Shown piece by piece: positions 24,996 through 41,019 of a DNA stretch of 64,000 nucleotides. The DNA comes from Kiritimatiellia bacterium (lineage in GTDB: Bacteria > Verrucomicrobiota > Kiritimatiellia > RFP12 > UBA1067). The translations under genes and the position numbers were made by a program. The stretch covers positions 523 to 64,522 of the forward strand of contig JAZOQU010000039.1 in the NCBI GenBank assembly GCA_045656225.1, written 5' to 3'. The stretch's first letter is position 1. Every line of letters begins with the position of its first letter. Under the pieces are notes generated by a model that worked only from the letters and a program-made list of their open reading frames with translations, ran no database searches and was not told the DNA's origin.

Positions 24996-25022
24996 TATAT
25001 TCTACATAAATAGAATAAGAAG

Positions 25023-25508: not shown

Positions 25509-25747
25509 CTTCGAAGATTGTACTCAGTCTATCCAATGTTGCATCTTTCGTGTAGAGCGCGATAGCGCTCGTTTTCGTGACCCCGTAGGGGTTTTGTGTC
25601 TGAGTTAAGTGACAAAACCCGATAGGGTGAAGAGGCGTTGGGCGCGGTGGCAACGCAAAGCGTTAAGCCACAAGCGCACAGCGACACTTCAATCGCACTT
25701 GCGCGATTTGTCACTAACTCAGTTTTAGTGGTCGCGCGTCAGCGCTC
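25509..25747 (+). repeat. structured repeat family N, copy N1 (candidate ncRNA)
   Basis: Three TTTCGTG boxes, each followed by a small hairpin, then a long closing stem CTGAGTTAAGTGACAAA/TTTGTCACTAACTCAG around internal hairpins. Paralogs at 28704-28878(-), 36244-36486(+) and 43540-43762(-). Confidence 0.7.
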
Positions 25748-25783
25748 TTCCCTCTTCCCACTTCCCATTCCCACCTTGTTTAC

Positions 25784-25801
25784 TTATCATAATTATGATA
25801 A
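25784..25801. promoter_or_regulatory. perfect 18-bp palindrome overlapping the phd-parE promoter (likely operator)
   Basis: TTATCATAATTATGATAA, overlapping a TAAAAT -10 candidate about 30 nt upstream of the antitoxin ATG. Confidence 0.5.
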
Positions 25802-25829
25802 AATCTTTGGTGTAAAAGATGGAGAAATT

Positions 25830-26114
25830 ATGTCAACATTATTAAAGGATGCCGATATTCGCCCTATTTCTGATCTTCGCAATCGATTTGCTGAAGTTTC
25901 AGATTATGTGCAAAGTGGAAAGACGATAATTTTCACGAAAAACGGCTATGGATGTATGGTTACAATGAGTTTCGATGCGTACAAGTCGCTTTCGGATCCA
26001 GCGTTAACTGAACTTAAACGAGTTGATGAATTGCTCGAAACCGACAATCGCCATTTTACACGCGAGGAGTCGCTAAATATACTTCGGGAGCGTGCAAATG
26101 CTCGGAGAAAATAA
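25830..26114 (+). CDS. Phd/YefM-family type II antitoxin
   Basis: GGAG RBS. MSTLLKDADIRPISDLRNRFAEVSDYVQSGKTIIFTKNGYGCMVTMSFDAY fits the Phd/YefM fold pattern. Overlaps the downstream toxin ORF. Confidence 0.75.
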   Translation: MSTLLKDADIRPISDLRNRFAEVSDYVQSGKTIIFTKNGYGCMVTMSFDAYKSLSDPALTELKRVDELLETDNRHFTREESLNILRERANARRK

Positions 26115-26412
26115 TTACACACTTGATATCCGACCTACATTCATTGACGAGCTTGACGCAACAGTTCGTTACATTGAGCAGGAATTACAGAATCCAATTG
26201 CGGCGGATAAATTGATCGAACAAACTTACGCGGCGATTGATGAAAGATTGTTTGCTCCTGAATCCTTTGAGCCGTGTTATCGTCCGCCAGATGTTAAACA
26301 ACCGTATTATAGGATTCATGTCGGGAATTTTGAGGTTTATTATATTGTTCGTGATAAAGTTATGGAAGTAAGATGGTTTCGCTATTCTAAAAGCGTTCAA
26401 CCTCTTACGTAA
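26092..26412 (+). CDS. RelE/ParE-family type II toxin
   Basis: 106 aa. C-terminal YYRIHVGNFEVYYIVRDKVMEVRWFRYS is typical of the RelE/ParE fold. 23-nt overlap with the antitoxin. Confidence 0.7.
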   Translation: MQMLGENNYTLDIRPTFIDELDATVRYIEQELQNPIAADKLIEQTYAAIDERLFAPESFEPCYRPPDVKQPYYRIHVGNFEVYYIVRDKVMEVRWFRYSKSVQPLT

Positions 26413-26572
26413 GTGTAGCATAAAATAAACGCGTAAAGTCTAGTCCTCTGCCAATCCTGTGCTAATGCTCTTGTAATACACTTCGTGATTGCTATGATTG
26501 GCTAAGTTAGTGCGCGTCAGTAATACCGTTCCGCAATTTAAGCGAATCGCAGAAATGAGATATAATAATCGT

Positions 26573-26701
26573 ATGAAAACAAATGCGCTTTTGTATGCAG
26601 ATGAAACTTACGAAATCAACCGTTGTATTTATGATATTCTGATAGCGAAGGTATGGTAGAAGATATTGAAACAGGCGATATTTCGCCTATTCAGTTGCAT
26701 T
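26573..26701 (+). repeat. roughly 125-bp direct repeat R125, copy 1 (contains a 28-codon mini-ORF, probable gene remnant)
   Basis: Near-identical to 30600-30723. The ATG..TAG mini-ORF (MKTNALLYADETYEINRCIYDILIAKVW) is frameshifted in copy 2. Confidence 0.8.
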
Positions 26702-26740
26702 AATATTTCTTTTATAGGTTTTGTAACTTTTTTGATTGTT

Positions 26741-27197
26741 TTGCTTGCTCCTGCGGAGCAGACGACTTATATCGATAATTTTTTACTGCGCCTTCGGCGC
26801 GACGACTTATATCGACTTTTATGTGCGCAGGCATTGTGCGGAAGGCTTTAATCTCGTGGCCGGACTTGTCGTCGCTTTTGCTCCGACGCCACGAGATTAA
26901 GCGCCTTATCCTTCCGCACAATGCCTGCGCATTTAGAAGTTAGTTATATTATTAATGAAGTGCATCGCTCGATCAGGAGGATAGGCACTTGCGTTGCGCC
27001 CGTCGCCGCAGGTGACAAGTCCGGGGCGCAACGGAAAGCCTACCGAGCGAGCGATGCACACAAAAGTCGTTCCAAGTCGTCGCGGCGAAGCCGCAGTAAT
27101 AAAAATAAATCTAACCGGCCACGAGATTAAAGCCTTCCTTCCAAGGCTTGCGCCAAAGTCGTTCCAAGTCGTCTGCCGCGTCAGCGGCAAGTAAAAA
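26741..27197. repeat. hairpin-mosaic element E1 (MITE/BIME-like)
   Basis: Terminal inverted modules TT(A/G)CTTGC-hairpin-AGACGACTTATATCGA (x2 at the left end) and AAAGTCGTTCCAAGTCGTC-hairpin-AAGTAAA (x2 at the right end). Long nested hairpins at 26821-26932 and 26979-27044. Confidence 0.8.
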
Positions 27198-27233
27198 CAA
27201 CTTCCTACTTCCCACGTCCTCCCAAAATCGCTA

Positions 27234-27263
27234 TTGCACCGAAAAACTCTAATGTGATATAAT
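27234..27263 (+). promoter_or_regulatory. sigma70-type promoter with extended -10 for the DUF3800 gene
   Basis: TTGCAC, 18 nt spacer, TGaTATAAT. Followed by a GC-rich leader of about 90 nt. Confidence 0.5.
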
Positions 27264-27360
27264 TTGAGGCGACGAAGGCTTAATAGGCTGGGGTCATCGA
27301 GACGCGGAGAAAGTTCTTCGCCTTGAGCGGCGGTGAAAACCGTCGCTCTTGCATTTTAAG

Positions 27361-28053
27361 ATGAATGATAGAAATATACTGAGCATATTTGTCGATGAAT
27401 CTGGGAATTTCTCATTTGAGAAAGAGGCTTCCCGGTTCTATATTGTTTGCTTTGTAATGCATAATCAAAATTCATCTATTGATGAACATGTCAGAAAACT
27501 AGACTCTGATCTTGATCGAATGGGATTCTCGAATCTGTGCTTTCATGCCGGTCCCATAATTCGTCATGAAGATGGGTACGAGTTTATGAACTGGGAATTA
27601 CGCAATCGAATATTCTCAAAGATGATGGCGTTCTATCGCAAGGCAGAATTCTCCTACCATTGTTTTACGGTGGATAAAAAGTTTGTCTCGTCCGAATCGC
27701 AGATTGTAGATCGACTTAAAATAGAAATAAAAGCCTTTCTTGAAGCCCTTCGCATGAACTCTGAAATTGCGCAACATCTGAAGCTGTATTATGATTGTGG
27801 CCAAACGCCAATAACAAACATGCTTCAATCGGCTATGACATCAGTGTATGGCGATGATTGGGAGTTTGCGCAAGATGTAAAGCCCATAAAATACAAGCTT
27901 TTTCAAATAGCAGACTTAATCTGCACAACAACTCTCATTGAGCAGAAAATAGCCAATGGTCTTAAAATGACTAAAAGCGAAGATAAATTTTTTGGTGGTC
28001 CCAGAAATTTCAAGCGCAATGTTCTTAAGGTAATAAAGCGCAAAGAAATCTAA
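27361..28053 (+). CDS. DUF3800 domain protein (paralog 1)
   Basis: N-terminal ILSIFVDESGNFS motif. Clear paralogy to 42376..43071 (FHAGPIIRHEDGYEF / FHAGPLIRREKGYEY, YHCFTVDKKF / YHCLSVDKKY). The ORF is open from a TTG at 27349. Confidence 0.7.
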   Translation: MNDRNILSIFVDESGNFSFEKEASRFYIVCFVMHNQNSSIDEHVRKLDSDLDRMGFSNLCFHAGPIIRHEDGYEFMNWELRNRIFSKMMAFYRKAEFSYHCFTVDKKFVSSESQIVDRLKIEIKAFLEALRMNSEIAQHLKLYYDCGQTPITNMLQSAMTSVYGDDWEFAQDVKPIKYKLFQIADLICTTTLIEQKIANGLKMTKSEDKFFGGPRNFKRNVLKVIKRKEI

Positions 28054-28092
28054 GTATTTCGAGTCTTTTGTTTTCTAACTTTTTTTATTGTA

Positions 28093-28581
28093 TTTACTTG
28101 CGCCTTCGGCGCGACGACTTATATCGACTTTGACGAGCGGAGGAGGAAGGAAGGCTTTACGCCGATGCCCAGACATGTCGCGCAAGTGCGACGGCATCGT
28201 CGTAAGCGCCTTATCCTTCCTTCCTCCTCCGCTCGTTAGAGTATTAATCAAATGTCAATTATTTGTGATTGTGCGACGGATATGCGGATAAATGCGCCGA
28301 AGAGCGAAGCTCGAAGGGAGATACACCTGCACCGAAGGTGTCAGGTCGCCCGACGAGCAACGCGAGGAGCTTTGCGAAGCAAAGTCGCAAGAGGCTGTGC
28401 CGCGCAGACCGAAGGTCGAGCGCACGAGCGTAGCGAAGTGGCCGCAAGGCGCCGCGATCGGCGTTTAATCTCGTGGCGTCGGAGCGAAGCGACGACAAGT
28501 CCGGCCACGAGATTAAAGCCTTCCTTCCAAGGCTTGCGCCAAAGTCGTTCTAAGTCGTCTGCCGCGTCAGCGGCAAGTAAA
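28093..28581. repeat. hairpin-mosaic element E2
   Basis: Same end modules as E1. Forward hairpin 28132-28236 and reverse hairpin 28460-28520. Shares a core with E3 and E4 (GCGCCGAAGAGCGAAGCTCGAAGGGA...), here carrying an insert of about 80 nt. Confidence 0.8.
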
Positions 28582-28703
28582 TAACCTCTTCCCTCTTCCC
28601 ACTTCCCTCTTCCCTTCCAAAAAACCGCGCGAGGGGTGAAAATGCGGCGCTAGCGATGGAAAAGGATGAAGATAGTAATCTATTCGCGCTTCGCTTAGTG
28701 GCG

Positions 28704-28878
28704 GCTCCGCCGTGAGGTAGTGACAAATTGCGCAAGCGCGATTGAAGCGCTGCTGTGCGCTTGTGGCTTAACGCTTTGCGTTGCCACCGCGCCCATTGCC
28801 TCTTAACCCTATCGGGTTTTGTCACTTACCTCAGACACGAAACCCCTTCGGGGACACGAAAATTCACGAAAATGTGGG
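28704..28878 (-). repeat. structured repeat family N, copy N2 (5'-truncated)
   Basis: The reverse complement reads TTTTCGTGAATTTTCGTG-TCCCCGAAGGGG-TTTCGTGTCTGAGGTAAGTGACAAAACCCGATAGGG.... Its internal part is nearly identical to N1. Confidence 0.7.
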
Positions 28879-28986
28879 GGAATGGGGAACTGGGAAGAAA
28901 GACTAAAATATGAAGCGAGAAAAAGTGACTATAGATAGAGGAGATTGGTTGCATTTTTGTCTGAAAAAGCATATACTATTTCCGAC

Positions 28987-29604
28987 ATGAAAGAAAAGGA
29001 TTATTCGGAGAAAATTAGAGAGCGCGTCTCAAAGCTTAGAGATGGCGAACTTGTCGTTATGGTTGATTTTGCCGATATTGCTCCAAATAACACCGTCAAC
29101 AAAATTGTTACGAGACTTGTGGACGAGAATCTTTTGCGTCCTATTATCAGAGGAGTTTATCAAAAGCCGCTGATGAATTCATTTCTTGGCGAGCCAATAG
29201 AACCTACTGGCGAGGCTTTGGCGTTAGCAATAGCTCGAAAGAATGGATGGACGATATGTCCTAATGGAGATACCGCGCTTAATTTGCTTGGTCTTTCTAC
29301 TCAGGTTCCTGCGAATTGGAGTTTTCTTTCGAATGGTCCATATAAAGTATATAAGTTTAGCGGCGGTGAAATTCGCTTTTCTCATACGGCGAATAGATTA
29401 TTAGAGAGTTTATCAAAGGATTCAGTATTTCTAGTACAGGCATTGAGAGCTTTGGGTGAAGAGAGTACAGATGAAGAGACGCTTATGCGCCTATCTCACA
29501 ATATTTCACCTGAACGGATAAATCTAATTGAGGCCGAAACTAGGAATGTTCCAGATTGGATTCGGTCAAAAATTGCGAAATTAAAGGAGATTAAAAATGC
29601 GTAA
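28987..29604 (+). CDS. AbiEi-family (DUF6088-like) type IV antitoxin
   Basis: EKIRERVSKLRDGELVVMVDFADIAPNNTVNKIVTRLVDENLLRPIIRGVYQKP matches the AbiEi/DUF6088 N-terminal pattern. Overlaps the AbiEii gene by 8 nt. The ORF is open from a TTG at 28945. Confidence 0.7.
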   Translation: MKEKDYSEKIRERVSKLRDGELVVMVDFADIAPNNTVNKIVTRLVDENLLRPIIRGVYQKPLMNSFLGEPIEPTGEALALAIARKNGWTICPNGDTALNLLGLSTQVPANWSFLSNGPYKVYKFSGGEIRFSHTANRLLESLSKDSVFLVQALRALGEESTDEETLMRLSHNISPERINLIEAETRNVPDWIRSKIAKLKEIKNA

Positions 29605-30598
29605 TGTTGCAAGAGAAAGCGATGCCAATCTTTATGCGCTTTTTGCGAATACATCGGCTAAGAGTGGATTATCTCCTGCTGTTATAGAAAAGGACTTTTG
29701 GGTTTGTTGGCTACTTGATTACCTTTTCAGTAGATCGCCATGGAAAAATCAATTGGCGTTCAAAGGCGGTACTAGTCTCTCAAAGGCATTTGGTCTTATC
29801 AAACGCTTTTCCGAAGATGTTGACCTTATTCTTGACTGGCGGCTGCTCGGATATGAGAAAGATGAGCCTTGGCAGTCACGCAGCAATACTCAGCAAGACA
29901 TTTTTAATACGAAGGCGAATGAAAAAAGCGCCATATTCTTAAGAGATGTTTTTGCACCGAAACTCCGTGAAGATCTTGCGCGTGATCTTAATCATCCAGT
30001 TGATATCAATATAGACCCGGTAGATCCTAATACGGTTATATTTAATTATCCATGCGCATTTTCGGACGCGTCAATTCTTCGTGAAATACGTATTGAAAGT
30101 GGTAGCCTTGCCGCATGGACACCTGCGCGGCACAAGTCTATTTCACCTTATGCCGCTGAATATTATCCGCATATTTTTAAGCAGGCAGAAACATTGGTGT
30201 TTACGGTTGAGGCTGAACGGACATTTTGGGAGAAGGTTACAATTTTACATCGAGAGGCGATGCGTACAGAACGCCAAGGCCCGATGCCGCCACGTTATTC
30301 TCGGCATTATTATGACTTATGGAGTATGTGCCAAGGCGAAACTAAGGACGCTGCGCTTGCCAAGCTAAATCTTCTTGATGCGGTTGTTGAGTTTAAAAAG
30401 AAATTCTATCGTTGCGCATGGGCTAAGTACGAATTGGCGACTGCGAAGTCAATTTCGTTGATGCCGCCAGCTGCTGCAATCCCATCTTTAGAAGCGGACT
30501 ATCGTCACATGCGTAATATGATATTCGGTGAAACGCCACCATTTGAAGAGATGCTTGACTGTATAGCGAAGCTTGAAGATGAGATTCATAAGTGTTAA
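29597..30598 (+). CDS. AbiEii/AbiGii nucleotidyltransferase toxin (DUF1814)
   Basis: IEKDFWVCWLLDYLF...LAFKGGTSLSKAFGLIKRFSEDVDLIL is the hallmark N-terminal nucleotidyltransferase region. Confidence 0.8.
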   Translation: MRNVARESDANLYALFANTSAKSGLSPAVIEKDFWVCWLLDYLFSRSPWKNQLAFKGGTSLSKAFGLIKRFSEDVDLILDWRLLGYEKDEPWQSRSNTQQDIFNTKANEKSAIFLRDVFAPKLREDLARDLNHPVDINIDPVDPNTVIFNYPCAFSDASILREIRIESGSLAAWTPARHKSISPYAAEYYPHIFKQAETLVFTVEAERTFWEKVTILHREAMRTERQGPMPPRYSRHYYDLWSMCQGETKDAALAKLNLLDAVVEFKKKFYRCAWAKYELATAKSISLMPPAAAIPSLEADYRHMRNMIFGETPPFEEMLDCIAKLEDEIHKC

Positions 30599-30599
30599 T

Positions 30600-30723
30600 A
30601 TGAAAACTAATGCGCTTTTATTTAGCTCAGAAACTTACCAATCGTTGTATTTATGATATTCTGATAGCGAAGGTATGGTAGAAGATATTGAAACAGGCGA
30701 TATCTCGCCTATTCAGTTGCATT
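30600..30723 (+). repeat. direct repeat R125, copy 2
   Basis: Matches 26573-26701. It again sits immediately upstream of an E element. Confidence 0.8.
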
Positions 30724-30736
30724 GATTTTTATTGTA

Positions 30737-31163
30737 TTTACTTGCTCCTTTGTTTTACTTGCTCCTGCGGAGCAGACGACTTATATCGACTTTGACGAGC
30801 GGAGGAGGAAGGAAGGCTTTACGCCGATGCCCGGATATGTCGCGCAAGCGCGACGGCATCGTCGTAAGCGCCTTATCCTTCCTTCCTCCTCCGCTCGTTA
30901 GAGTATTAATCAAATATCAATTATTTATGACTGTGCGACGGATATGCGGATAAATGCGCCGAAGAGCGAAGCTCGAAGGGAAGCCGCGCAGACCGAAGGT
31001 CGAGCGCACGAGCGTAGCGAAGTGGCCGCAAGGCGCCGCGATCGGCGTTTACGACGCGTCCGCCGCCGCAGGCGGCAAGTCTGGGACGCGGCGTAATGCC
31101 GACCGCATATCCGATGCACACAAAAGTCGTTCCAAGTCGTCTGCCGCGTCAGCGGCAAGTAAA
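30737..31163. repeat. hairpin-mosaic element E3
   Basis: End modules as in E1 and E2. Forward hairpin 30794-30898, nearly identical to the one in E2. Reverse hairpin 31044-31100. Long-range stem GTGCGACGGATATGCGG / CCGCATATCCGATGCAC. Confidence 0.8.
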
Positions 31164-31337
31164 ATAAAAAAACCGCGCGAGGGGTAAAAATGCCGCGGTA
31201 GCGATGGGAAAGGGAGAGAAAATAAAAAAAATTAAAAAATATTTTTAAGGGGGTTAAAAGTGCGTTTCACCCCTATTTTTATTGGGTGAGATGGCGATTA
31301 GGGTCTAAGTTCGAAGCAGAAGGGGAGTATACCCCAC

Positions 31338-31367
31338 TTTACAAACAACCCCACAATTCGCTACAAT
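31338..31367 (+). promoter_or_regulatory. sigma70-type promoter candidate for cassette A
   Basis: TTTACA, 18 nt spacer, TACAAT, about 150 nt upstream of the ATG at 31517. It lies outside the proposed invertible segment. Confidence 0.4.
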
Positions 31368-31516
31368 ATAGGTGCTTGGGCGGATAGTCGAAACTCGCGG
31401 TGAGTTTCATCTACCTTGGCGAAAATCGGAACGACGATGAGTTGGCGATCTGGGTATCGTAAATGAATCTGAGTTCTAAACCTAATCGGGCTGGGCCCCG
31501 AGAAAGTGAAAAAGAA

Positions 31517-32287
31517 ATGAAGAAACTTATGTTTGCAGCTACGGCCGCCGTCTGTGCCGCAGTAACGTTCGGATTGGAGTCCGCTAATATTGTAGGTTAT
31601 AGTCAGTCGGATGTTCGTTTGAATTTGTCACAGCAGATGCCGACCTTCGCTAATGTTGGTCAGACTTCTGTTGACATTCAGTCGATGATCCCTGTTGATG
31701 CTGATGGCGAAGTTCTTGACTATGAGTTCACCATTCAGGAAATTTCAGACCTTGGCAAGGTTATCAAGGTGTACGACTACATTCTCGCTGACTCTTCTGA
31801 CGATGGCGAAATGGAAGGCTGGTTGACCTATAATGAAGACGGTGAGCAGGAAGTTGTTGAGCGTAAGTTCGATATTGGCGAGGGCTTCTTGGTTCTTGCT
31901 ACCGCAGCTGGTAAGATGAGTTACTGTGGTGAGGTAGTTATGGGCGAGATTTGTGTTCCTGTTCGTAAGAACCTTTCTGCTCAGGGCAATATCCGTCCTA
32001 TGCCGGTTGATATTCAGACCTTGATTCCCGTTGATGCTGACGGTGAAGTTCTTGACTATGAATTCACCATTCAGGAGACAACTGACCTTGGCAAGGTTAT
32101 CAAGGTGTACGACTACATTCTCGCTGACTCTTCTGACGATGGCGAAATGGAAGGTTGGTTGACCTATAATGAAGATGGCGAGCAGGAAGTCGTTTCTCGC
32201 ACATTTAATGCTGGCGAGGGCTTCTTGATTCTTTCTACGGCTGATGAAGGGTTTCTTAAGTTCCCCGCTATTCAAACCAACAACTAA
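31517..32287 (+). CDS. cassette A gene 1: secreted protein with two tandem repeat domains of about 112 aa
   Basis: Signal peptide MKKLMFAATAAVCAAVTFG, then LESANIVGY. Internal 336-bp tandem duplication (about 31670-31905 and 32006-32241). The ORF is open from 31463. Confidence 0.75.
   Translation: MKKLMFAATAAVCAAVTFGLESANIVGYSQSDVRLNLSQQMPTFANVGQTSVDIQSMIPVDADGEVLDYEFTIQEISDLGKVIKVYDYILADSSDDGEMEGWLTYNEDGEQEVVERKFDIGEGFLVLATAAGKMSYCGEVVMGEICVPVRKNLSAQGNIRPMPVDIQTLIPVDADGEVLDYEFTIQETTDLGKVIKVYDYILADSSDDGEMEGWLTYNEDGEQEVVSRTFNAGEGFLILSTADEGFLKFPAIQTNN
31552..31600. repeat. inverted repeat IR-a, left copy (inside the gene 1 5' coding region)
   Basis: CTGTGCCGCAGTAACGTTCGGATTGGAGTCCGC (33 nt) is a perfect reverse-complement match to 41009-41041. 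Over the full repeat the match is 46/49. Confidence 0.9.
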
Positions 32288-32340
32288 TTTACTACACAGC
32301 ATAGTGTTGTGTGGATAAAACAAAAAAAAGGAAAAATAAA

Positions 32341-32895
32341 ATGAAAAAAATCATGGTAGCAGCAGCAGCGATTGCTATGGCGGTAGTTGCTAATGCGTCA
32401 TCTGTTATCTGGACATGTTCGAACGTGTTCCTCGGCAATGAAACCGACAAGTGCTCGGGTATTGCTTACTTCGTAAATGCAGACTTAATCAGCTCCACTG
32501 CCCTCAAGGCTCTTGGAGACGATGGTGCCGCTGCAATTACAACTGCTCTCGGCAGTTCGTATAGCTTCACCCCTGCCTCCGCTGGTTCTTATGTTAAGAC
32601 AGCTGCTAACGCAGTTTCAGTAGGCACGTTGGGTCTCGCTGATACAACAGCTTACACTGGTTACCTCGTAATCTTCGATGGTGCTACCATCGCTGATTCT
32701 ACGAAGTTCTACACTACTCAGGAGATGGATTTCACCACTCTTGCTGGTGATAACGCCGTTCAGGTTAAGTTCGGTTCTCAGAAGGTCAACTCGACCGACG
32801 CTGGTAATTGGACTGCTGTTGCTCCGGAGCCGACCTCTGGTCTCCTCCTCCTCATTGGCGTTGCTGGCCTCGCTCTCCGTCGCCGTCGCGCCTAA
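32341..32895 (+). CDS. cassette A gene 2: PEP-CTERM sorting-domain protein
   Basis: Signal peptide MKKIMVAAAAIAMAVVANA. C-terminus VAPEPTSGLLLLIGVAGLALRRRRA (PEP motif, TM helix, Arg cluster). Confidence 0.85.
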   Translation: MKKIMVAAAAIAMAVVANASSVIWTCSNVFLGNETDKCSGIAYFVNADLISSTALKALGDDGAAAITTALGSSYSFTPASAGSYVKTAANAVSVGTLGLADTTAYTGYLVIFDGATIADSTKFYTTQEMDFTTLAGDNAVQVKFGSQKVNSTDAGNWTAVAPEPTSGLLLLIGVAGLALRRRRA

Positions 32896-33027
32896 TTGGT
32901 TAGGAGTTAGTAGTTAGGAGTCAGGAGTTAGTAATAAGGAAGTTAAAATTCCATTGTTCAACTTGAACTTCGACTTCGACTCTAACTTAACAAAACGGTA
33001 AGCCCGTCCGATTATTCGGGCGGGCTT
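32821..33027. repeat. inverted repeat IR-b, left copy (PEP-CTERM coding end plus 3' UTR and terminator)
   Basis: Reverse complement of 39576-39781, with about 9 mismatches and 1 indel over about 207 bp by hand count. Includes the terminator hairpin AAGCCCGTCCG-ATTATT-CGGGCGGGCTT. Confidence 0.9.
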
Positions 33028-33048
33028 CAAAATTTTAAGGAGATTATT

Positions 33049-33873
33049 ATGGCTTGGAATCGTTCTATACCAAAACAAGTTAGCCCTAAAAAGAAAATAA
33101 GTCGTTTTCTTCTTTATATTTCGATACTTGGTGTAGTTATTTTGGTTATCTCCTTTTTTATAATGTCGGCATCAGAAGATGTTGTTCTCGAAGAAGACGA
33201 AACATCTTCTACACAAAAAACACCTAAGAAAAAACCCGTAAAACAGGATATTCCTAAGGAATCACTCGAAAGTGATTCTACTGTCGTTGAAACTAACACT
33301 GTAGAAGAAGCGACACCTACAGTAAAAAAAGCCAAACATAGTGGGCGATTTGTTGATGTTTCAAAGGCTATTTTTATTCCACGCAAGGATCCGCCCCGTA
33401 GATTTATCAATGACGCTGAAGAAGATGTCGCTTCACTCTTGGAGGTAATTCCAGGGGAGATGATCGTAGGCGAAATTAATTATCATAAAAAGAATCGATT
33501 TGTTAATAGTTTAAAGCAAGCGTTAGAGAATCCTACTCGTATTGACGAAAACGATTCAGCGTATTCAGTTGAATTAAAAAATTCAGTAAGAGATGTTATT
33601 AACGATTTAGCTCAGCGCATGAGAAAAGGCGAAGATGTCGCCGCGACGATGAAGCAAGCTAGATCAGAATTACAAGACCTAGGAATCTTTAGAATGGAGC
33701 TCCAAAACGAGCTAAAAAACATTCGCAAGACTACAGATGTTACAACAACTGAATATGAAGAATTTGTAGCTGTCGCGAATAAGATGTTAATTGAAAAAGG
33801 TGCAGAACCATTAAAAATTCCAAAAATCGTTTATCATCAATTGAAGTTAAGAGAAGAAAGGAAAGAAAAATGA
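33049..33873 (+). CDS. cassette A gene 3: N-terminally membrane-anchored protein, unknown function
   Basis: AAGGAG RBS. Starts MAWNRS..., followed by the TM helix FLLYISILGVVILVISFFIM. Positional counterpart of 38167..39057 (MGWNGS...). Confidence 0.7.
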   Translation: MAWNRSIPKQVSPKKKISRFLLYISILGVVILVISFFIMSASEDVVLEEDETSSTQKTPKKKPVKQDIPKESLESDSTVVETNTVEEATPTVKKAKHSGRFVDVSKAIFIPRKDPPRRFINDAEEDVASLLEVIPGEMIVGEINYHKKNRFVNSLKQALENPTRIDENDSAYSVELKNSVRDVINDLAQRMRKGEDVAATMKQARSELQDLGIFRMELQNELKNIRKTTDVTTTEYEEFVAVANKMLIEKGAEPLKIPKIVYHQLKLREERKEK

Positions 33874-34700
33874 AATTAGCTGTATATTGCGTTGTTGCCT
33901 TGCTTGGGGTTGCTTCTTTTGCTAAGGATAAAACCCCATTGCATTTGACATCTGCTGAAGAATTTAAGGCTAGGAAAGCTGAATTTGATGCATTGACACC
34001 AGAGCAGAAGAATGAATTCCGTCAGAAAAGAATTGCCTTTCATAAGGAGAAGGCTGGTGGTGTTGTTAGGGATACGCGCGGAATGTCAGGAACGGTATAT
34101 GTAATCAATGCTCAGAAAAATATCTCAACGGATGATGTTAAAAAGCCTGTTGAGTGGTTACAGAACTACTTAAAAGTGCAGTTTAAGGTCATTGATGGCG
34201 CTTATGTTCATAGGGATACGGCTTATTCTTTTAGGCAAAAGAACAAAGCTAATGCTATCATTGTAGTTTATGATGACCCTAAAGAGTCCGCCTCTATTCT
34301 CGTTGCCCCTGAATCCCGTTGGGGTTCTATTAATATAGCTCAATTAGGCACTGACAATCTTGTTGAAAGAACTCAGAAGGAAATTTCAAGAACGATTGCT
34401 TTTGTTTGCGGAGGTATCAGCAGCCAATATCACCCAACACTTGGATCTCACGTAGATTCGCCATCGTTTTTGGATAAGGTTGATGGCTATGATTTACCCG
34501 TAGATATTCTTCTTTCAATTCGTCAATTTCTCCCTCAATTAGGTGTAAGACCATATAGAGACGTAATGTATCGTAAGGCATGTCGTGAAGGCTGGGCTCC
34601 TGCTCCGACAAATGATGTCCAAAAAGCTATTTGGAATGAAATCCACGCTACTCCGAAGAATCCTATGAAGATTGAATTCGATCCTAAGAAAGGTCGATGA
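33870..34700 (+). CDS. cassette A gene 4: secreted protein, unknown function
   Basis: Signal peptide MKLAVYCVVALLGVASFA. The C-terminus EGWAPAPTNDVQKAIWNEIHATPKNPMKIEFDPKKGR is conserved in the paralog at 37298..38149. 4-nt overlaps with both neighbouring genes. Confidence 0.75.
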   Translation: MKLAVYCVVALLGVASFAKDKTPLHLTSAEEFKARKAEFDALTPEQKNEFRQKRIAFHKEKAGGVVRDTRGMSGTVYVINAQKNISTDDVKKPVEWLQNYLKVQFKVIDGAYVHRDTAYSFRQKNKANAIIVVYDDPKESASILVAPESRWGSINIAQLGTDNLVERTQKEISRTIAFVCGGISSQYHPTLGSHVDSPSFLDKVDGYDLPVDILLSIRQFLPQLGVRPYRDVMYRKACREGWAPAPTNDVQKAIWNEIHATPKNPMKIEFDPKKGR

Positions 34701-35488
34701 AATACACCTACGCATATAAGACCTCTGACGGGGTGCGGCATGAAGAAACTATGAATGCCGCATCTCGCGAAGAGGTTTTTACTGCGCTACGAGCCAAGGG
34801 CATAAAGGCGATTAAGGTTGTCGCCGCTGACGGATCTAAAGCCAATGGCGAAGTGCGCGGCATCCGCAAACGAGTAGTTGCAGCGATTGTTATTATCGTT
34901 GCTGTAGCTGTTGGTGCTATCGCTTATTTCGGCGGCTCACAATCTAAAACCGATAGCATTTCAAACACAACCTCTAACCAAAATTCCAATGCTATCGCAG
35001 TCATTGAGAGTCCAACTCAAGACAATGCGAGACGACAGGTTATTGGCGATGTCGCTATAATCGAAAAAGGCATCCGCAACGGATGGAGCGACGTCTTTGA
35101 ACTTGAGGGCGATAGGTTTCTCGCCTCGTTCGCCATCCCTGGCGTAAAGGCAGGTCAGCGTAATACTTCCGAAAAGGAATTCGCAGCAGCGCTTGAGAAT
35201 AAATGCGAGATTAAGCCTAATGACTCAATCGAAGTCAAACAGATAAAAGCGATGGTCGAGGGGATGAAAGACGAGGCTCGCCGTTACATCGCTGCTGGTG
35301 GCTCAATTGTCTCTTATGGTAAAAGACTTACCGAGAGACAAGACGCTGAGATTGCTATTTATGAAAGAATCAAAGCCGATCTCGAAAAGGCTCATTCATC
35401 TATGAGCGAAGATGAATACATGATTTACTGGGAAAAGCGGAATGACGAACTTAGAAATCTTGGGATTAAGACGATTGGGCTGGAGTGA
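34697..35488 (+). CDS. cassette A gene 5: single-pass membrane protein with a GspF/PilC-N-terminus-like motif
   Basis: MKYTYAYKTSDGVRHEETMNAASREEVFTALRAKGIKAIKV resembles the F-Y-A-D-G...A-S...L...G motif of T2SS/T4P platform protein N-termini. One TM helix. Roughly three-quarters identical by eye to 36504..37301. Confidence 0.7.
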   Translation: MKYTYAYKTSDGVRHEETMNAASREEVFTALRAKGIKAIKVVAADGSKANGEVRGIRKRVVAAIVIIVAVAVGAIAYFGGSQSKTDSISNTTSNQNSNAIAVIESPTQDNARRQVIGDVAIIEKGIRNGWSDVFELEGDRFLASFAIPGVKAGQRNTSEKEFAAALENKCEIKPNDSIEVKQIKAMVEGMKDEARRYIAAGGSIVSYGKRLTERQDAEIAIYERIKADLEKAHSSMSEDEYMIYWEKRNDELRNLGIKTIGLE

Positions 35489-35581
35489 GGGGCGGTAGAA
35501 GGTTTTAGGTGAAGGTTAGAGGTGAAGGTGAACAGCGGAATTTGAGATTTTCCCTCTTCCCACTTCCTTTAGTAGTTCTTC

Positions 35582-35803
35582 TTAATCAAAGAGCTCAGGC
35601 TCGTTTTCGATTAGATCTGCCGCAAGGTATTTATAATCAAGATTATCAATACCATAAAGCCCCTCAGCAATTTGGTTGCAAAGGCGACTACGATAATAAA
35701 TGTCAGTAGCAGAGCGAATATCTATCTTACGCATTTTACTTAGCTCGCTAATGATGTCTATAGACAAATCTTGCCGATAAATATCTACCTCTGACTTTTT
35801 CAT
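35582..35803 (-). CDS. small hypothetical protein (possibly DUF3791-like)
   Basis: 73-aa ORF in tandem with the DUF3791-like ORF upstream. Family similarity is weak. Confidence 0.4.
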   Translation of the reverse strand: MKKSEVDIYRQDLSIDIISELSKMRKIDIRSATDIYYRSRLCNQIAEGLYGIDNLDYKYLAADLIENEPELFD

Positions 35804-35895
35804 GTTATTACATCTTAATTATCCGAGATCCAAGCGACCTTTAGCCTTTGTAAGATCTGGGATTTTGACTTCGCAAATACTACCATGGTAAACAG

Positions 35896-36117
35896 TCATG
35901 CGATTTCGTACCCCCAATCCTTGACGCAACCAGTTACATCATCAACAAGATATTCCTTACCTAACGTGTGTAACACATCATAATGGAGAATAAGATAATT
36001 ATCTAAAACTTTGGAATTATTCAAAATAGAATACACCTTCTGCGGGGACATGTGCCATGCCTCCGCAAGGGCGTGAATCATAAAGACCACAAAAACAAGT
36101 ACAGAACGATTAGCCAT
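35896..36117 (-). CDS. DUF3791-like small protein
   Basis: 73 aa. The pattern ...AEAWHMSPQKVYSILNNSKVLDNYLILHYDVLHTLGKEYLVDDV resembles DUF3791 family members. Confidence 0.5.
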   Translation of the reverse strand: MANRSVLVFVVFMIHALAEAWHMSPQKVYSILNNSKVLDNYLILHYDVLHTLGKEYLVDDVTGCVKDWGYEIA

Positions 36118-36243
36118 AAGTTATGTCAACATTATACCAAAAAACTAATTAGATAGGAGCGGAAAAATAAAACCAATAGCGAAGTCTGGGAAAAGAAAAA
36201 CGAGGCATTGCGCTGCCTAAGTAAGACCAAAACTTAAAACTCG

Positions 36244-36486
36244 CTTCGTCAGAATGTACTCAGTGTCTCCAGTGTTGTGCTTTTCGTGTAGCCTCCGAAG
36301 GAGGCGTTTTTGTGTCCCACGAATGTGGGCTTTCGTGTTTGGGAGCGCGGCAAAAGCCGTAGGCTTTAGACGAGACGATGCGCTATGGGTGACGCGTTAA
36401 GCGACAAACCCAATAGCGCATTGGCGAGTCGTTAATCGCGTTAACGATTTGCCGCGCTCACAACTTTCGTGGTCGCGCGGAGCGCC
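36244..36486 (+). repeat. structured repeat family N, copy N3
   Basis: TTTTCGTGTAG-CCTCCGAAGGAGG-CGTTTTTGTG-TCCCACGAATGTGGG-CTTTCGTGTTTGG, then the closing stem GAGCGCGGCAAA/TTTGCCGCGCTC. The architecture is the same as N1 but the stem sequences differ. Confidence 0.7.
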
Positions 36487-36503
36487 ACACTAATCACTAA
36501 TGA

Positions 36504-37301
36504 TTATTCTAGCCCTACCGTCTTAATTCCTAAATTTCTAAGCTCTTCGTTGCGGCGTTCCCAGACGTCCATGAAGTCGTCTTCGTTAAGCGATTCTTTA
36601 GCCTTTTCAATTTCTGACTTTATCCTCTCGTAGATTGCGATTTCTGCGTCTTGGCGTTCTGTTAGGCGCTTACCATAGTCGACGATTGTGCCGCCCGCTG
36701 CGATATATTGCCGCGCTTCGTCTTTCATTCCCTCGACCATCGCTTTAATTTGACGCGCTTCAGGCGAATCGGCAGGGAGGATCTCGCACTTTGAATTTAT
36801 CGCAGCTTCAAATTCTTTAAGCGAAGTGTTGCGCTGACCAGCCTTAACGCCAGGAATCGCGAAGCTCGCTAAGAACCTATCTCCTTCGAGCGCGAAGACA
36901 TCTGCCCACCCAGTGCGAATACCCTTAGCTACGATCGCTTCATCACCGAAAACTTGGCGGCGGGTTTTATCGACATTCGCCAAGTTCGCATAGGGATTAC
37001 TCTCAGCCTTACCTAATGATTCTTTGGCGCTCTCAGGCACGTTGTTTACCGCGCTCTTGCTTCCGCTAAAGTAGGCTGCAACACCTACGCCAAGTGCAAC
37101 AGACGCCACAAGAGCCACAACACCGCGCTTTCTAAGGCCGCGAACCTCTCCGTTAGCTTTAGAGCCGTCAGCAGCGACAACTTTAATCGCTTTTATGCCG
37201 CGTTTACGCAATTCAGCGAACACCTCTTCTCTCGAAGAGGCGTTCATTGTATCTTCATGACGTATTCCGTCACTCGACTTATATGCGTAAGTATATTTCA
37301 T
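36504..37301 (-). CDS. cassette B gene 5 (paralog of 34697..35488)
   Basis: MKYTYAYKSSDGIRHEDTMNASSREEVFAELRKRGIKAIKVVAADGSKANGEVRG.... High identity to the A copy at both termini. Confidence 0.75.
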   Translation of the reverse strand: MKYTYAYKSSDGIRHEDTMNASSREEVFAELRKRGIKAIKVVAADGSKANGEVRGLRKRGVVALVASVALGVGVAAYFSGSKSAVNNVPESAKESLGKAESNPYANLANVDKTRRQVFGDEAIVAKGIRTGWADVFALEGDRFLASFAIPGVKAGQRNTSLKEFEAAINSKCEILPADSPEARQIKAMVEGMKDEARQYIAAGGTIVDYGKRLTERQDAEIAIYERIKSEIEKAKESLNEDDFMDVWERRNEELRNLGIKTVGLE

Positions 37302-38149
37302 CGACCTTTCTTAGGATCGAACTGAATTTTCATTGGATTTTTGGGGGCGGCGCGGACTTCGTCCCAAACAGCCTTTTGGTACTCGTTCGTTGGCTGGGGC
37401 GCCCAGCCTTCCATGACTGCGAGTTTATAGGGGATATGACGCGCTCTTTTAACGCCGAACTTAGCCATTTGAGCGTACATCTTTTGGAAGTTCATAGGCT
37501 GCATAACTTGATAAACGAGCGCGTCGAGTTCCTTAAGATTATAAACTGGCTGAAGTACATCGTTCTTATAGGGCGCGTAACCGATACCGCCTACAAAGCC
37601 AAGCGCTCTCCAAACTTCCTTAATAAGTCTCGTCTCTGGCGCGAGAGGATCATTGCCGCCGAGATAACGCTTAGCATTGATAACTGCGATACGCTCCTCT
37701 GGCATTACGCAAAGACCAGGGCAATCGCCAGATTCAGCGATGAGAATCACATACGCGGCATTATTAGCCTTAAGCGCGGCGAGCGCTTTGGCGTATGGCT
37801 TTTCGTTCGCGTTAAGCTTTGACTTATCAATCTTAATATTCGTCTTAGATAAATCGCCGAATACTTCGGCGAAGCGATCTGCCGCGATGCCGGGCTTTTC
37901 GCGTGTATCAACTACGACTACGCTTACGCCAACTGCCGCGACATCGAGAAAGCCGCCTGTCTTTTTAAGGACTGCCGGGCGATTTTCAAGTTCAGCGCGA
38001 GTTTGCTTTTTATCAGCCTTTTTCTGACCTTCAGCCGCCTTTAGAGCTGCTGCTTCAGCCATCTTTTTAATTTGGTCTTCTTGGGCGTTATTAGCGAGAA
38101 TGGGAGCCGTGATAAGAAGCGCGGCGATTATACTTAGAGTAGCTTTCAT
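37298..38149 (-). CDS. cassette B gene 4 (paralog of 33870..34700)
   Basis: Signal peptide MKATLSIIAALLITAPILA. Conserved C-terminus EGWAPQPTNEYQKAVWDEVRAAPKNPMKIQFDPKKGR. Confidence 0.75.
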   Translation of the reverse strand: MKATLSIIAALLITAPILANNAQEDQIKKMAEAAALKAAEGQKKADKKQTRAELENRPAVLKKTGGFLDVAAVGVSVVVVDTREKPGIAADRFAEVFGDLSKTNIKIDKSKLNANEKPYAKALAALKANNAAYVILIAESGDCPGLCVMPEERIAVINAKRYLGGNDPLAPETRLIKEVWRALGFVGGIGYAPYKNDVLQPVYNLKELDALVYQVMQPMNFQKMYAQMAKFGVKRARHIPYKLAVMEGWAPQPTNEYQKAVWDEVRAAPKNPMKIQFDPKKGR

Positions 38150-38166
38150 ATTGTGAACCTTAATCC

Positions 38167-39057
38167 TTAATTGGAGTCTTTATGAGCGTCAATAATATCG
38201 TTAATGTGTTTAGGAATTTTAGCGTCAGGTAAGCCTAATTCTCTAAACTTTTGATTTAAAGTATCGCGATAGAGCGCGGCGGATTTAGCGTCACCTTTTT
38301 TGAGAAATCCTACAATATCCTTTAAGGTTGACGCGGTTAAGCCCTTTTGAATGGTAGCGGTTTGGCGCATTTCCATTACAAATTCATCGAAGCTCGCGCC
38401 AGTAGTTTCCATATAATCAAGCGCGAGTTCCTTAACTTCAGCGGCGGCTGTCTTTTTGCGGATGACTTCTTCGCTGTCATCGGGGTTAATTGTAACAGGT
38501 TTACGAAGCATTTTCATAACCTCAGCTTTATCTAAGCCCATAAGCATACCAGGGATAAACGATCCGTTTTGAAGATTCATGCCAATAAGATTCTCTTCAA
38601 AGGCGTTGTCGAATACAGGCTTAGGAGTAATATCTACCCAATTACCCTCATGATCACATTTATACACAGCGCCATGAGAGTGTACAGTTCTAAATTCACC
38701 GGGAGCAGGAACGGGGAAGGTTAAAACGCGACCATCGGGCGTTTGCATTGTGCCAGGCTTTTTAACGAATGGGGGCTTTTCCTTTTTTTGCGCGGCAAGG
38801 GGCTTCTCGGTCTTTTTAACGAGATTGGTCGAGGTCTTAGGCGTGGGAACGCGCTTTTTAGGGGTGTCGGTTTGCGCAATGGGCGCGGATTCGGGCTTAG
38901 AGAGGAAGAAATAAAGCACGATGCCGCCAAATAACGCGATAAGGGCGCAGATAGCGTATGGTACAACGCGCAGCTTGCGCGTTGACTTAGGAGTATCATT
39001 TTTCTTGAACGAGCTAGCAGCTCGTTCTACTACTTTATCTGATCCATTCCAACCCAT
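38167..39057 (-). CDS. cassette B gene 3: N-terminally membrane-anchored protein
   Basis: Starts MGWNGS..., with the TM helix VVPYAICALIALFGGIVLYFFL. Same position and topology as 33049..33873 but highly diverged. Confidence 0.7.
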   Translation of the reverse strand: MGWNGSDKVVERAASSFKKNDTPKSTRKLRVVPYAICALIALFGGIVLYFFLSKPESAPIAQTDTPKKRVPTPKTSTNLVKKTEKPLAAQKKEKPPFVKKPGTMQTPDGRVLTFPVPAPGEFRTVHSHGAVYKCDHEGNWVDITPKPVFDNAFEENLIGMNLQNGSFIPGMLMGLDKAEVMKMLRKPVTINPDDSEEVIRKKTAAAEVKELALDYMETTGASFDEFVMEMRQTATIQKGLTASTLKDIVGFLKKGDAKSAALYRDTLNQKFRELGLPDAKIPKHINDIIDAHKDSN

Positions 39058-39076
39058 AAGTTTTCTTTCTGTTTAT

Positions 39077-39563
39077 TTTTACTTGCCGCGTTCCGCGGCA
39101 GACGACTTAGATCGACTTTTATATGCTCCGGACGTACGGTAGGCTTTCCGTTGCGCCCCGGACTTGTCGCCTGCGGCGACGGGCGCAACGCAAACGCCTA
39201 TCCTCCCGTCCGTCCGTCGCATAAAGGAGTTAATTATTACACCTGCGCATGACTTGGAAGGAGATGCGCCGAAGAGCGAAGCTCGAAGGGAAGCCGCGCA
39301 GACCGAAGGTCGAGCGCACGAGCGTAGCGAAGTGGCCGCAAGGCGCCGCGATAAGGCGCTTAATCTCGTGGCGTCGGAGCGAAGCGACGACAAGTCCGGC
39401 CACGAGATTAAAGCCTTCCTTCCAAGGCTTGCGCTAAAGTCGTTCCAAGTCGTCTGCACCGCAGGAGCAAGTAAATCAAAACTAACCAACCACGAGCTTA
39501 AAGCTTCCTTACAAGGCTTGCGCCAAAGTCGTTCCAAGTCGTCGCGCCGTAGGCGCAGTAAAA
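39077..39563. repeat. hairpin-mosaic element E4 (insertion relative to cassette A)
   Basis: Same end modules as E1-E3 (two at the right end). Forward hairpin 39123-39222 and reverse hairpin 39354-39415. It occupies the gene 2 - gene 3 spacer, which in cassette A (33028-33048) is only about 20 bp. Confidence 0.8.
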
Positions 39564-39575
39564 CTTAAAGTTAGA

Positions 39576-40293: not shown

Positions 40294-41019
40294 TTAATAG
40301 GGGCAAGCAATCTCAATGTTGAACGTAAGGCTGTTCATATTATCGATAGCGAAGCCAGCACCAGGTTCGATTGTAACATTAACGGGAGTACCCATTTCAT
40401 CGCCCCAGAAGTTACCAGCCTCTTCACCAGCAGGATTCATCGACTTGTCAAAGTAGAAATAAATCGTTTCAGCGCTGCCGAGAGGACCAACAATCTGCAT
40501 CGTATCGCCCCAGCCAACAGTAGGCATTTCGCCAGTAGGCGTACCATCGTTGAGCTGAATAGCATTGATATTAATGGCAGCAGGGAAGGGGTTGCCCGTC
40601 CAATTGAAGTTAGCGCGAGCAGGGATGGAAACCTTGGCAGTAGGAACTTCACCTGCAGTGCGGATCTTGAACTCAAGACCGTTCATGTTATCAATCGCAA
40701 TACCATCGCCGGAATCGAACGAAACAGCAACAGGCGTACCCATTTCGTCGCCCCAGAAGTTACCAGCCTCTTCACCAGCAGGATTCATCGACTTGTCAAA
40801 GTAGAAGTAAATCGTTTCAGCACTGCCGAGAGGTCCAACGATCTGCATCGTGTCGCCCCAACCAACTGTAGGCATTTCGCCAACAGGAGTGCCGTCATCA
40901 AGCTGAATGGCGTTTATGTCGGTGGTATTAGCACCAGCCGTGACGAACATAGGAGCATACCAGTTAAAGTTAGCACGCGCATCCGTGTTATTATACCCAA
41001 CAATATTCGCGGACTCCAA
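40294..41019 (-). CDS. cassette B gene 1: 5'-truncated (no ATG, no signal peptide) tandem-repeat protein, candidate silent cassette
   Basis: Begins at ..LESANIVGY, where only a TTG is available. Homology to the cassette A gene starts exactly at IR-a. Two repeats of about 115 aa share a near-identical 50-aa core (DNA 40729-40878 and 40381-40530). Confidence 0.6.
   Translation of the reverse strand: MESANIVGYNNTDARANFNWYAPMFVTAGANTTDINAIQLDDGTPVGEMPTVGWGDTMQIVGPLGSAETIYFYFDKSMNPAGEEAGNFWGDEMGTPVAVSFDSGDGIAIDNMNGLEFKIRTAGEVPTAKVSIPARANFNWTGNPFPAAININAIQLNDGTPTGEMPTVGWGDTMQIVGPLGSAETIYFYFDKSMNPAGEEAGNFWGDEMGTPVNVTIEPGAGFAIDNMNSLTFNIEIACPY

Follow-up and report, generated by a model that had tools for sequence, protein, structure and literature searches.

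What are the four hairpin-rich, non-coding elements that punctuate a variable region in the genome of an uncultured Kiritimatiellae bacterium from the ruminant gut, how do they spread, and do they act as DNA or as RNA? The elements, E1 to E4, lie in a stretch of 64,000 nucleotides (contig JAZOQU010000039.1 of assembly GCA_045656225.1), the whole of which is referred to here as the window. An initial annotation described them as a mobile mosaic of small hairpins. This idea proved broadly right, and from comparisons with related loci and contigs (numbered L031 to L187) we infer a mechanism for it. We propose that E1 to E4 belong to a previously undescribed family of non-autonomous, composite palindromic repeats of gut Kiritimatiellae. 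These would resemble the repetitive extragenic palindromes (REPs), bacterial interspersed mosaic elements (BIMEs) and REPINs of other bacteria and act through DNA hairpins, a reading to which we assign a rough probability of 0.45.

Structure of the elements

The building block is a hairpin-rich arm of about 150 nt, and an element is an inverted pair of such arms around an AT-rich spacer. The symmetric plan of six modules first drawn for the elements gave way to this simpler one, two inverted copies of a single arm. E1 (26741-27197) begins with a solo unit (26741-26780), followed by a plus-strand arm (26778-26932), the AT-rich spacer, a minus-strand arm (26958-27104) and a truncated extra arm, also on the minus strand (27124-27195). 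E2 (28089-28581) consists of a plus-strand arm (28089-28238), an AT-rich spacer (about 28239-28295), an extended GC-rich core on the plus strand (about 28296-28445) and a minus-strand arm (28431-28581). In E3 (30737-31163), a partial unit (30737-30753) precedes a plus-strand arm (30754-30900), the spacer, a GC-rich core (30954-31038) and a minus-strand arm (31015-31163). E4 (39077-39566) has a plus-strand arm (39078-39224), the spacer, a GC-rich core (39264-39348), a minus-strand arm (39325-39475) and a truncated extra arm on the minus strand (39494-39566).

These assignments are based on a covariance model (R1) built from 32 arms. The model scores 116.1, 127.9 and 30.0 bits in E1 (where matches to the end-module motif were used as well), 136.3 and 81.6 bits in E2, 129.3 and 106.6 bits in E3, and 127.2, 81.8 and 43.5 bits in E4. 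Its search of the 64-kb window returned 10 matches, 8 full and 2 truncated arms, every one within E1-E4. The end-module motif GACGACTTANATCGA, with at most 2 mismatches allowed, occurred 11 times, again exclusively within the elements, against 0.61 occurrences expected by chance. The four elements lie where the initial annotation located them, and the covariance scan that it recommended placed all arms of the window inside them.

Read from its outer end inward, an arm opens with a T-rich lead-in and TTTACT, followed by P1, a GC stem of 4-7 bp that usually has a 3-nt loop. On the 3' side of P1 stands GACGACTT-NNAN-CGACTTT, that is, two direct CGACTT repeats 10 nt apart. Next come P2 (a variable stem of about 20 bp), AGGCTTTAC, P3 (a variable stem of 6-9 bp), the bulge CCGGACTTGT on the 5' side, hairpin P4 and CGACGG. 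The return strands then carry, on the 3' side, the second bulge, TTATCC. Together, P2, P3 and P4 form one hairpin of about 105 nt with two conserved bulges. P4 and its flanks are a second copy, at the tip of this long hairpin, of the 'ACTTGY-hairpin-RGACG' unit of which P1 is the outer-end copy. This explains the earlier count of about 19 small units, which holds once the P4 context (CCGGACTTGTCG-hairpin-CGACGG) is included beside P1. Searching E1-E4 with a loose pattern yields 16 matches. The terminal units, at the ends of minimal elements and of arms, are symmetric and inverted.

Copies differ mainly in which modules they carry. The full form measures about 310 bp, and minimal elements of this size (L050 4886-5199 and L076 7574-7901) lack the GC-rich core. 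The core is optional; where present, it sits in the 3' bulge (TTATCC) of one arm, the right arm in the window elements. It strings together c(GAA)g and GCAA mini-hairpins, which GCGCC...GGCGC closes. As had been noticed, it is common to E2-E4: E3 and E4 are 100% identical over 89 nt, and E2 is 80% identical and has an extra insert. Arms adjacent to the core have lost the P2' strand, which is replaced by the core in the local fold. A GC-rich insert of a similar kind sits at the tip of P4 in other copies. Extended forms of 430-490 bp carry extra GC-rich hairpin modules or partly duplicated arms. At the other extreme, 'mini' elements of about 195 bp have one long hairpin between two units (L167 1367-1563 and L154 975-1171), and a 'micro' form of about 135 bp has units only (L031 705-839).

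Covariation and folding

The initial annotation had also claimed that the stems of the mini-hairpins covary. This was examined on a MAFFT alignment not fitted to any structure, using 500 shuffles. Standard pairs filled 91.2% of cells against 70.7% in the shuffles, double-change cells numbered 190 against 61.6 +/- 6.4, and the covariation score was 0.498 against 0.149. None of the 500 shuffles reached the observed pairing, double-change or covariation values, figures that are not exact probabilities, the arm sequences being related by descent. When the 3' partners were slid by 1-3 columns as a control, pairing fell to 40-47%. Compensatory changes were present in 22 of the 31 pairs. P1 forms a perfect stem in 72 of the approximately 77 real units, and its 14 distinct stems are flanked by invariant TTTACT and GACGAC. 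The signal is strong and lies far beyond the controls, which bears out the claim of covariation; the structure of the arm is under selection.

Folded as DNA, the whole of E3 reaches -134 kcal/mol on either strand (z = -12.4 and -14.3 relative to shuffles). In this fold of the complete element, the terminal unit at one end pairs with that at the other. Hairpins of single arms reach -55 to -75 kcal/mol.

DNA or RNA

Conserved structure of this kind raises the question of whether the arms function as RNA, either as 3'-untranslated or intercistronic stops for 3'-5' exonucleases or transcription (like REPs of E. coli) or as protein-binding non-coding RNAs with the bulges as sites. Near DUF3800 genes, structured motifs without an assigned function have been described (PMC5737381). 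The elements lie downstream of at least one gene in 21 of 22 resolved contexts, the hairpins of -55 to -75 kcal/mol per arm are very stable, and conserved unpaired motifs, covarying stems and expansion segments at the apical loop and the bulge are found in functional RNAs. The pairs themselves argue otherwise. Watson-Crick pairs make up 85.6% of stem cells, and there are 77 G:T and 35 A:C cells, 31 of the 77 G:T cells coming from two conserved columns that are possibly not true pairs. RNA would tolerate G:U and avoid A:C. With the two columns set aside there is no excess of G:U over A:C, and the lack of this asymmetry argues against a transcribed RNA. The same counts were also tried for assigning the acting strand, for which they are not decisive.

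The loops point in the same direction. Of 72 units, 52 have TTC, TAC or TGC as their P1 loop and a single one has GNA, and among 31 distinct P4 variants there are 15 TNC loops versus 1 GNA. With TNC loops on the strand read from the outer end inward, it is the centre-outward strand of each arm that carries c(GNA)g triloops. In the core modules, GAA and GCAA loops likewise lie on the complement of the strand that reads inward from the arm's outer end. By DNA energy parameters this centre-outward (complementary) strand is the more stable one in 37 of 38 arms. Hirao, Yoshizawa and co-workers reportedly found d(cGNAg) mini-hairpins to be exceptionally stable as DNA, but not as RNA. GNA triloops are atypical of stable RNA loops, and here they lie on opposite strands in the two arms. 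Further, inverted pairing of the arms means that one transcript would hold one arm in each sense.

Searches for RNA signals agree with this. The window gave no Rfam match at the gathering score, and at a relaxed threshold there were generic hairpin matches only, at about 30 bits versus gathering scores of 60-105. A promoter and terminator scan found no sites inside any element and no enrichment. No U-tract stands 3' of any hairpin; a T-run precedes P1 instead. Nothing points to a role as intrinsic terminator, as no element contains a terminator-like site. Taken together, we consider it unlikely that the arms function as RNA. The loop bias, strand stability, pair statistics and inverted arm pairing favour arms that act as folded single-stranded or cruciform DNA.

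Mobility and the E4 site

The best evidence that the elements move comes from E4, which stands between gene 2 and gene 3 of a minus-strand PEP-CTERM operon (operon B, 41019-36504). A paralogous operon lies inverted to it in the window (operon A, 31463-35488, plus strand), and there the site is empty. The operons are 68-76% identical overall. Positions 32818-33039 (222 bp comprising the 3' end of gene 2 with its PEP-CTERM tail and the terminator) are 94.6% identical to 39784-39564, and the match between A and B stops exactly at the outer end of E4, 39563/39564. E4 is therefore an indel relative to the paralogue, as claimed; the spacer of operon A, however, measures about 153 bp and not the 20 bp or so first reported. 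In orthologues of operon B, an E element is present at the same point in L184 and L185, without the extra truncated arm of the window, and a different repeat of 400-480 bp, 'X', occupies the point in L182 and L187 (flanking genes are 91% identical to the window in L182, 82% in L187 and 91% in L184). The comparison of empty and filled sites across strains that the initial annotation had called for thus finds the spot polymorphic, with E, X or, in the paralogue, neither. Judging from these alignments, the E4 spot is occupied independently by two repeat families, and E elements probably move on their own, carrying no gene. The junctions read ...CTAACTTTAAG / TTTTACTGC...GCAAGTAAA(A) / (A)TAAA..., and reveal no target-site duplication, whether at E4, in L184 or in the paralogue.

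Two side observations concern this site. The 222-bp stretch of 94.6% identity, within operons that otherwise share 68-76%, suggests that gene conversion has taken place between these two inverted copies. Repeat family X (GTTGAGAGGTCCGAAATAACTCACGCAAAGTnCGCGAAGTCCGCAAAG ... CGCGTGAGACAT) is found at L182 4380-4970 and L187 4590-4980 and also at L031 675-699 and L166 1777-1801; the window has no copy. X and the GC-rich core of E have a short piece (TTCGCTCaTCTTCGGCGCATCTC) in common, and a piece of the core recurs in the otherwise unrelated X repeat of L182.

Could E1-E4 be classical miniature inverted-repeat transposable elements (MITEs), with the 40-bp units as terminal inverted repeats (TIRs) that are bound as duplex by the DDE transposase of an insertion sequence (IS) elsewhere, and with incidental hairpins? 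Their TIRs are clear, and the two direct CGACTT repeats, one helical turn apart, look like a protein-binding array. They are also non-coding, multi-copy and intergenic, with sizes of 135-490 bp. Compensatory variation in the TIR (the 14 P1 stems) and in P2-P4, however, is unexpected for a site read as duplex. No target-site duplication can be seen at E4, L184 or other junctions, and no IS with these ends is present among 143 open reading frames (ORFs) that neighbour elements elsewhere. The tandem solo units and truncated arms of E1 and E4 are more BIME-like than MITE-like. On this evidence we regard classical MITEs as quite improbable.

Distribution and gene context

E1-E4 are located inside a low-GC, strain-variable island of 20 kb that starts just 3' of tsf and ends before a sulfatase gene at 45477; the remaining core of the window amounts to about 45 kb. 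The covariance model gave 76 matches in 418 kb of sequence, most of which consists of loci selected for the motif: 10 in the window and 66 in about 40 ruminant-gut Kiritimatiellae contigs. The elements had been called island-specific. This holds within the window, where all matches fall in E1-E4, and fails beyond it, where about 40 other contigs carry elements. No arms were detected by the model in the core of the window or in the approximately 170 kb of partly redundant sister-strain core DNA of L169-L178, so that the uniform scatter which the initial annotation would have taken as refutation was not seen in this core DNA. An exact-pattern scan found real copies, among the matches listed, only in metagenome-assembled genomes (MAGs) of Kiritimatiellae from sheep, goat, yak and deer guts and in gut metagenome contigs. 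Pattern scanning at 16 specified bases was rejected as a search, most matches being due to chance, and all 11 matches on viral contigs were chance matches with no hairpin beside the motif. Six of 28 whole contigs end within an arm, as is typical of repeats at which assemblies break. The literature on Kiritimatiellae repeats and on GxxExxY yielded nothing relevant.

The flanking genes are in tandem in 13 cases, convergent in 8 and divergent in 1 (22 resolved contexts, based on approximate ORF calls). The neighbours are accessory genes, namely GxxExxY/PDDEXK_3, AAA_14-DUF4143 ATPases, 23S_rRNA_IVP, HipA, a Fic-type protein, a polyvalent-protein kinase, AbiE, ParE and DUF3800. DUF3800 itself is not tied to the elements, since a second DUF3800 gene of the island (42376-43125) and one in L182 have no arm nearby.

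Single genes often have elements on both sides. This is seen in E1-E3 of the window, where the order E1-DUF3800-E2-AbiE-E3 fills consecutive intergenic regions, and in L165 (E-kinase-E), L154/L148/L167 (E-GxxExxY-miniE) and L146 (arm-HipA-arm). Such alternation with single accessory genes or toxin-antitoxin pairs would be expected if the arms were folded-DNA recombination sites bounding mobile gene cassettes, with a recombinase moving 'gene + element'. The arms would then be attC-like, and the system an analogue of integrons or of clusters of attC sites lacking integron integrases (CALINs). Sites of the attC type are characterised by a conserved structure on variable sequence, by conserved bulges and by a strand bias, and a complex attC was proposed by Weinberg et al. 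2017 for another motif in consecutive intergenic regions (PMC5737381). Breakpoints of strain-specific DNA also fall at element ends, at 39563/39564 and at 31163/31168, homology with sister strain L173 resuming at 31168, 4 nt past E3. E4, on the other hand, sits within a conserved five-gene operon and brought no gene along. Whole elements, rather than halves, are conserved between contexts: E2 is 93% identical over about 440 bp to an element at L134 7921-8359, and the flanking genes are unrelated. The ~150-nt arms are paired in inversion, unlike the single hairpin of attC, and lack RYYYAAC/GTTRRRY boxes. No integron integrase was found; the recombinases of sister strains score 30.6 bits versus 265, sit in gene 1 and include one (L173) without an arm. 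We therefore hold a cassette role to be doubtful. Its bolder version, in which the arms are the sites of an undescribed folded single-stranded DNA cassette system that runs parallel to integrons, with a far more elaborate, two-armed site, and assembles toxin-antitoxin, Abi and accessory gene arrays in Kiritimatiellae, seems unlikely to us. If arms were cassette sites, they would represent a second, independent invention of integron-like gene capture.

Proposed mechanism and search for an enzyme

Based on these observations and on known REP systems, we predict that the composite palindromic repeats spread as follows. The arms would fold as single-stranded or cruciform DNA, with the centre-outward strand carrying the stable c(GNA)g triloops. 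A structure-specific DNA enzyme, presumably encoded elsewhere in the genome, would recognise the folded arms in trans; by analogy, an HUH/Y1 nuclease of the type of the REP-associated tyrosine transposases (RAYTs) would be the best precedent. This enzyme may copy or move elements into T-rich intergenic DNA downstream of genes, without target-site duplication. Elements would then diversify as arms recombine with one another and as loops and bulges take up nested insertions of small hairpin modules.

Several observations weigh against this prediction. The 143 ORFs adjoining elements elsewhere include no recurrent transposase and no unit-flanked RAYT, and the one Y1 gene beside an arm was rejected as a RAYT partner (see below). 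Genome-wide dispersal, a trait of REPs, was not seen in the core of the window or the sister-strain core sampled, a limited sample. Among the matches listed, a MAG has at least 1-2 loci, a figure that gives no copy number per genome. The exact ends and lack of duplication rest on one paralogous comparison and on A/T-rich junctions, and no clean pair of empty and filled orthologous sites was obtained. G:T cells slightly exceed A:C cells on one strand whereas the loops favour the other, which makes any assignment of the acting strand tentative. Finally, no REP approaches the size and intricacy of the arms, which are also without the GTAG motif.

The search for an enzyme covered both the window and the related loci. 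No integrase or transposase is recognisable in the window island. The genes that recur among the 143 neighbouring ORFs are accessory (PDDEXK_3, AAA_14/DUF4143, 23S_rRNA_IVP and HipA), and the link to a RAYT or IS200/IS605 TnpA suggested by the initial annotation did not materialise, the sole Y1 gene belonging to a separate IS. This gene (Y1(HUH)+wHTH, Y1_Tnp+Fic-like_C; 352 aa) abuts a truncated arm in L142/L156. It lies in an IS-like element of about 1.15 kb (L142 1062-2235, equal to L156; L179 5925-7100) with 38-bp inverted ends of its own, GAGAATGAAGGGTCAGAGCTTATTGATACAGTA, that are unrelated to the arms. Its 257 homologues are mostly on Kiritimatiellae contigs of 1-3 kb, which indicates a multi-copy IS. 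In L179/L180 no arm is found within 6 kb of the gene, and its score against the model of REP-associated tyrosine transposases (REP_Tyr_transpos) is 44 bits versus a cut-off of 80. The gene therefore belongs to an independent IS that merely truncates an arm.

Large tyrosine recombinases were the second candidate. In L068 and L141 they are located about 650 bp from an E element. A recombinase of 560-700 aa with a partner of 350-370 aa is encoded at L173 13093-16262, L068 950-3741 and L141 3592-6735, and the L173 and L068 recombinases share 48% identity. These genes interrupt the PEP-CTERM operon within the 5' part of its gene 1, a gene that is uninterrupted in the window. The element simply precedes the operon, an arrangement also seen for E3 in the window, and L173 carries the recombinase without any arm. 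Against the integron integrase model (integrase_gron), the sister-strain recombinase scores 30.6 bits versus a cut-off of 265. This candidate was rejected as well, its position being owed to the operon. An origin as palindrome-associated transposable elements derived from IS200/IS605 does not fit: the ends of E are symmetric and inverted rather than asymmetric one-strand hairpins, and no linked TnpA was found among the neighbouring ORFs. No autonomous IS sharing the E ends was present in the loci compared.

The island and its other repeats

An identical copy of the EF-Ts protein of the window (24159-24995) occurs in more than 20 public contigs, MAG GCA_017520845.1 among them. The island that follows contains phd/parE (25638-26412), DUF3800 (27349-28053), AbiEi/AbiEii (28945-30598), the two PEP-CTERM operons and the second DUF3800 gene. 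The first DUF3800 gene had been listed as a defence gene, which was not supported, as PADLOC gave no match for it. Exact-sequence look-ups of five island proteins retrieved no record, and a tRNA/tmRNA scan of the window found none. Most sister strains have an AMP-binding enzyme gene directly 3' of tsf. In L173 and L177 the upstream 11 kb are 96% identical to the window, and the island content is different.

Several features of this region were observed alongside the elements. The 3' side of tsf (24996-25100; L169-L178) is a strain-variable hotspot, with the AMP-binding gene in most strains and different islands in others. The DNA upstream of rpsB is variable too, L174 and L178 carrying a reverse transcriptase (RVT_1) and an HRDC gene there. 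A repeat of about 47 nt, 'R' (AAAAACCGCGCGAG...TAGCGATGG), separate from E, is present at 25105-25151, 28619-28665 and 31167-31213, the copies being 85-91% alike. The copies head one gene block after another, the first following the tsf terminator, the second E2 and the third E3; this third copy runs on into the promoter and 5' end of the PEP-CTERM operon in L068, L141 and L173. N-terminal pseudogene fragments of GxxExxY (PDDEXK_3), 94% identical to each other, lie just upstream of E1 (26560-26715) and E3 (30600-30737); intact GxxExxY genes are E-flanked in L154/L148 and L167, and one follows abiE in L187.

Inverted copies are found at both ends of the island (25187-25315 and 44203-44331, 129 nt, 97% identical; 25582-25645 and 43628-43691), which suggests, from their placement, a large inversion or island-level inverted repeats. 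A further similar pair is formed by 25572-25721 and 28713-28862, and segment 25187-25315 consists of successive GC mini-hairpins whose loops are TTC or TAC. Gene 1 of each PEP-CTERM operon (31670-32246 and 40316-40917) contains an internal direct repeat of about 240-254 nt, 83-86% identical, with the copies 336-348 nt apart.

Significance

The elements mark, and probably help to reshuffle, strain-variable blocks of accessory and defence genes in abundant, uncultured bacteria of the ruminant gut. They also break metagenome assemblies at those blocks, and the covariance model of the arm is a direct tool for mapping them. If the arms do act as DNA hairpins, biology of the REP/REPIN type would extend to the Planctomycetes-Verrucomicrobia-Chlamydiae (PVC) group. 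The arm would then be by far the most elaborate recognition structure of its kind, with four covarying helices, conserved bulges and tolerated expansion segments. It would also imply a structure-specific DNA enzyme.

Comparison with known systems

BOX and RUP of streptococci, Correia elements of neisseriae and MITEs are modular, non-coding, intergenic elements of a few hundred bp that have TIRs and gain and lose modules, and E elements are alike in all of this. Unlike E, these families show target duplications or known IS parents and have no such helix-by-helix covariation.

The attC sites of integrons were first noticed as repeats, for example as the Vibrio cholerae repeats. With attC sites and CALINs, the elements share the use of folded DNA, a conserved shape on variable sequence, strand bias and alternation with accessory or toxin-antitoxin genes. 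The differences are that E has two inverted arms and terminal units per boundary instead of a single hairpin of 57-141 nt and lacks R/L core boxes and an IntI. A motif check for attC boxes (RYYYAAC...GTTRRRY) found none at the bases of the long hairpins, which differ between arm types. Unlike an attC array, E4 stands alone inside an operon, with no cassette.

Weinberg et al. 2017 (PMC5737381) described DUF1874 and DUF3800-I to -XI motifs, which are structured, of unknown role and located beside accessory genes including DUF3800. One of these occurs in consecutive intergenic regions and was suggested to be an unusual attC or complex single-stranded DNA site (PMC5737381). In contrast to these motifs, no Rfam model matches the window, and E is not tied to DUF3800.

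The closest likeness is to the REP, BIME and REPIN repeats of Proteobacteria. REPINs are inverted REP doublets that are moved by RAYTs, which recognise hairpins in single-stranded DNA (PMC3116915, PMC3479197, PMC6006769). The E arm differs from a REP in measuring about 150 nt, with four helices and conserved bulges, versus 20-40 nt. Its flanks are TTTACT/GACGAC rather than GTAG, and no unit-flanked RAYT was found. E copies cluster in variable accessory regions, carry optional GC-rich expansion modules and have a host in the PVC group (Kiritimatiellae), unlike REPs and BIMEs. As in REP/BIME/REPIN systems, they are extragenic, multi-copy palindromic units with conserved flanks (PMC3116915, PMC3479197, PMC6006769). 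All full elements are inverted arm pairs, the doublet arrangement of REPINs, and they form mosaics of few unit types and linkers, mostly downstream of genes. Compensatory change keeps the hairpins, no target duplication is visible, and action on single-stranded DNA is presumed. We predict that E elements work like a REPIN or BIME without being a member of that family, since they have no GTAG, no unit-flanked RAYT was found among the neighbouring ORFs and the copies sampled are not dispersed.

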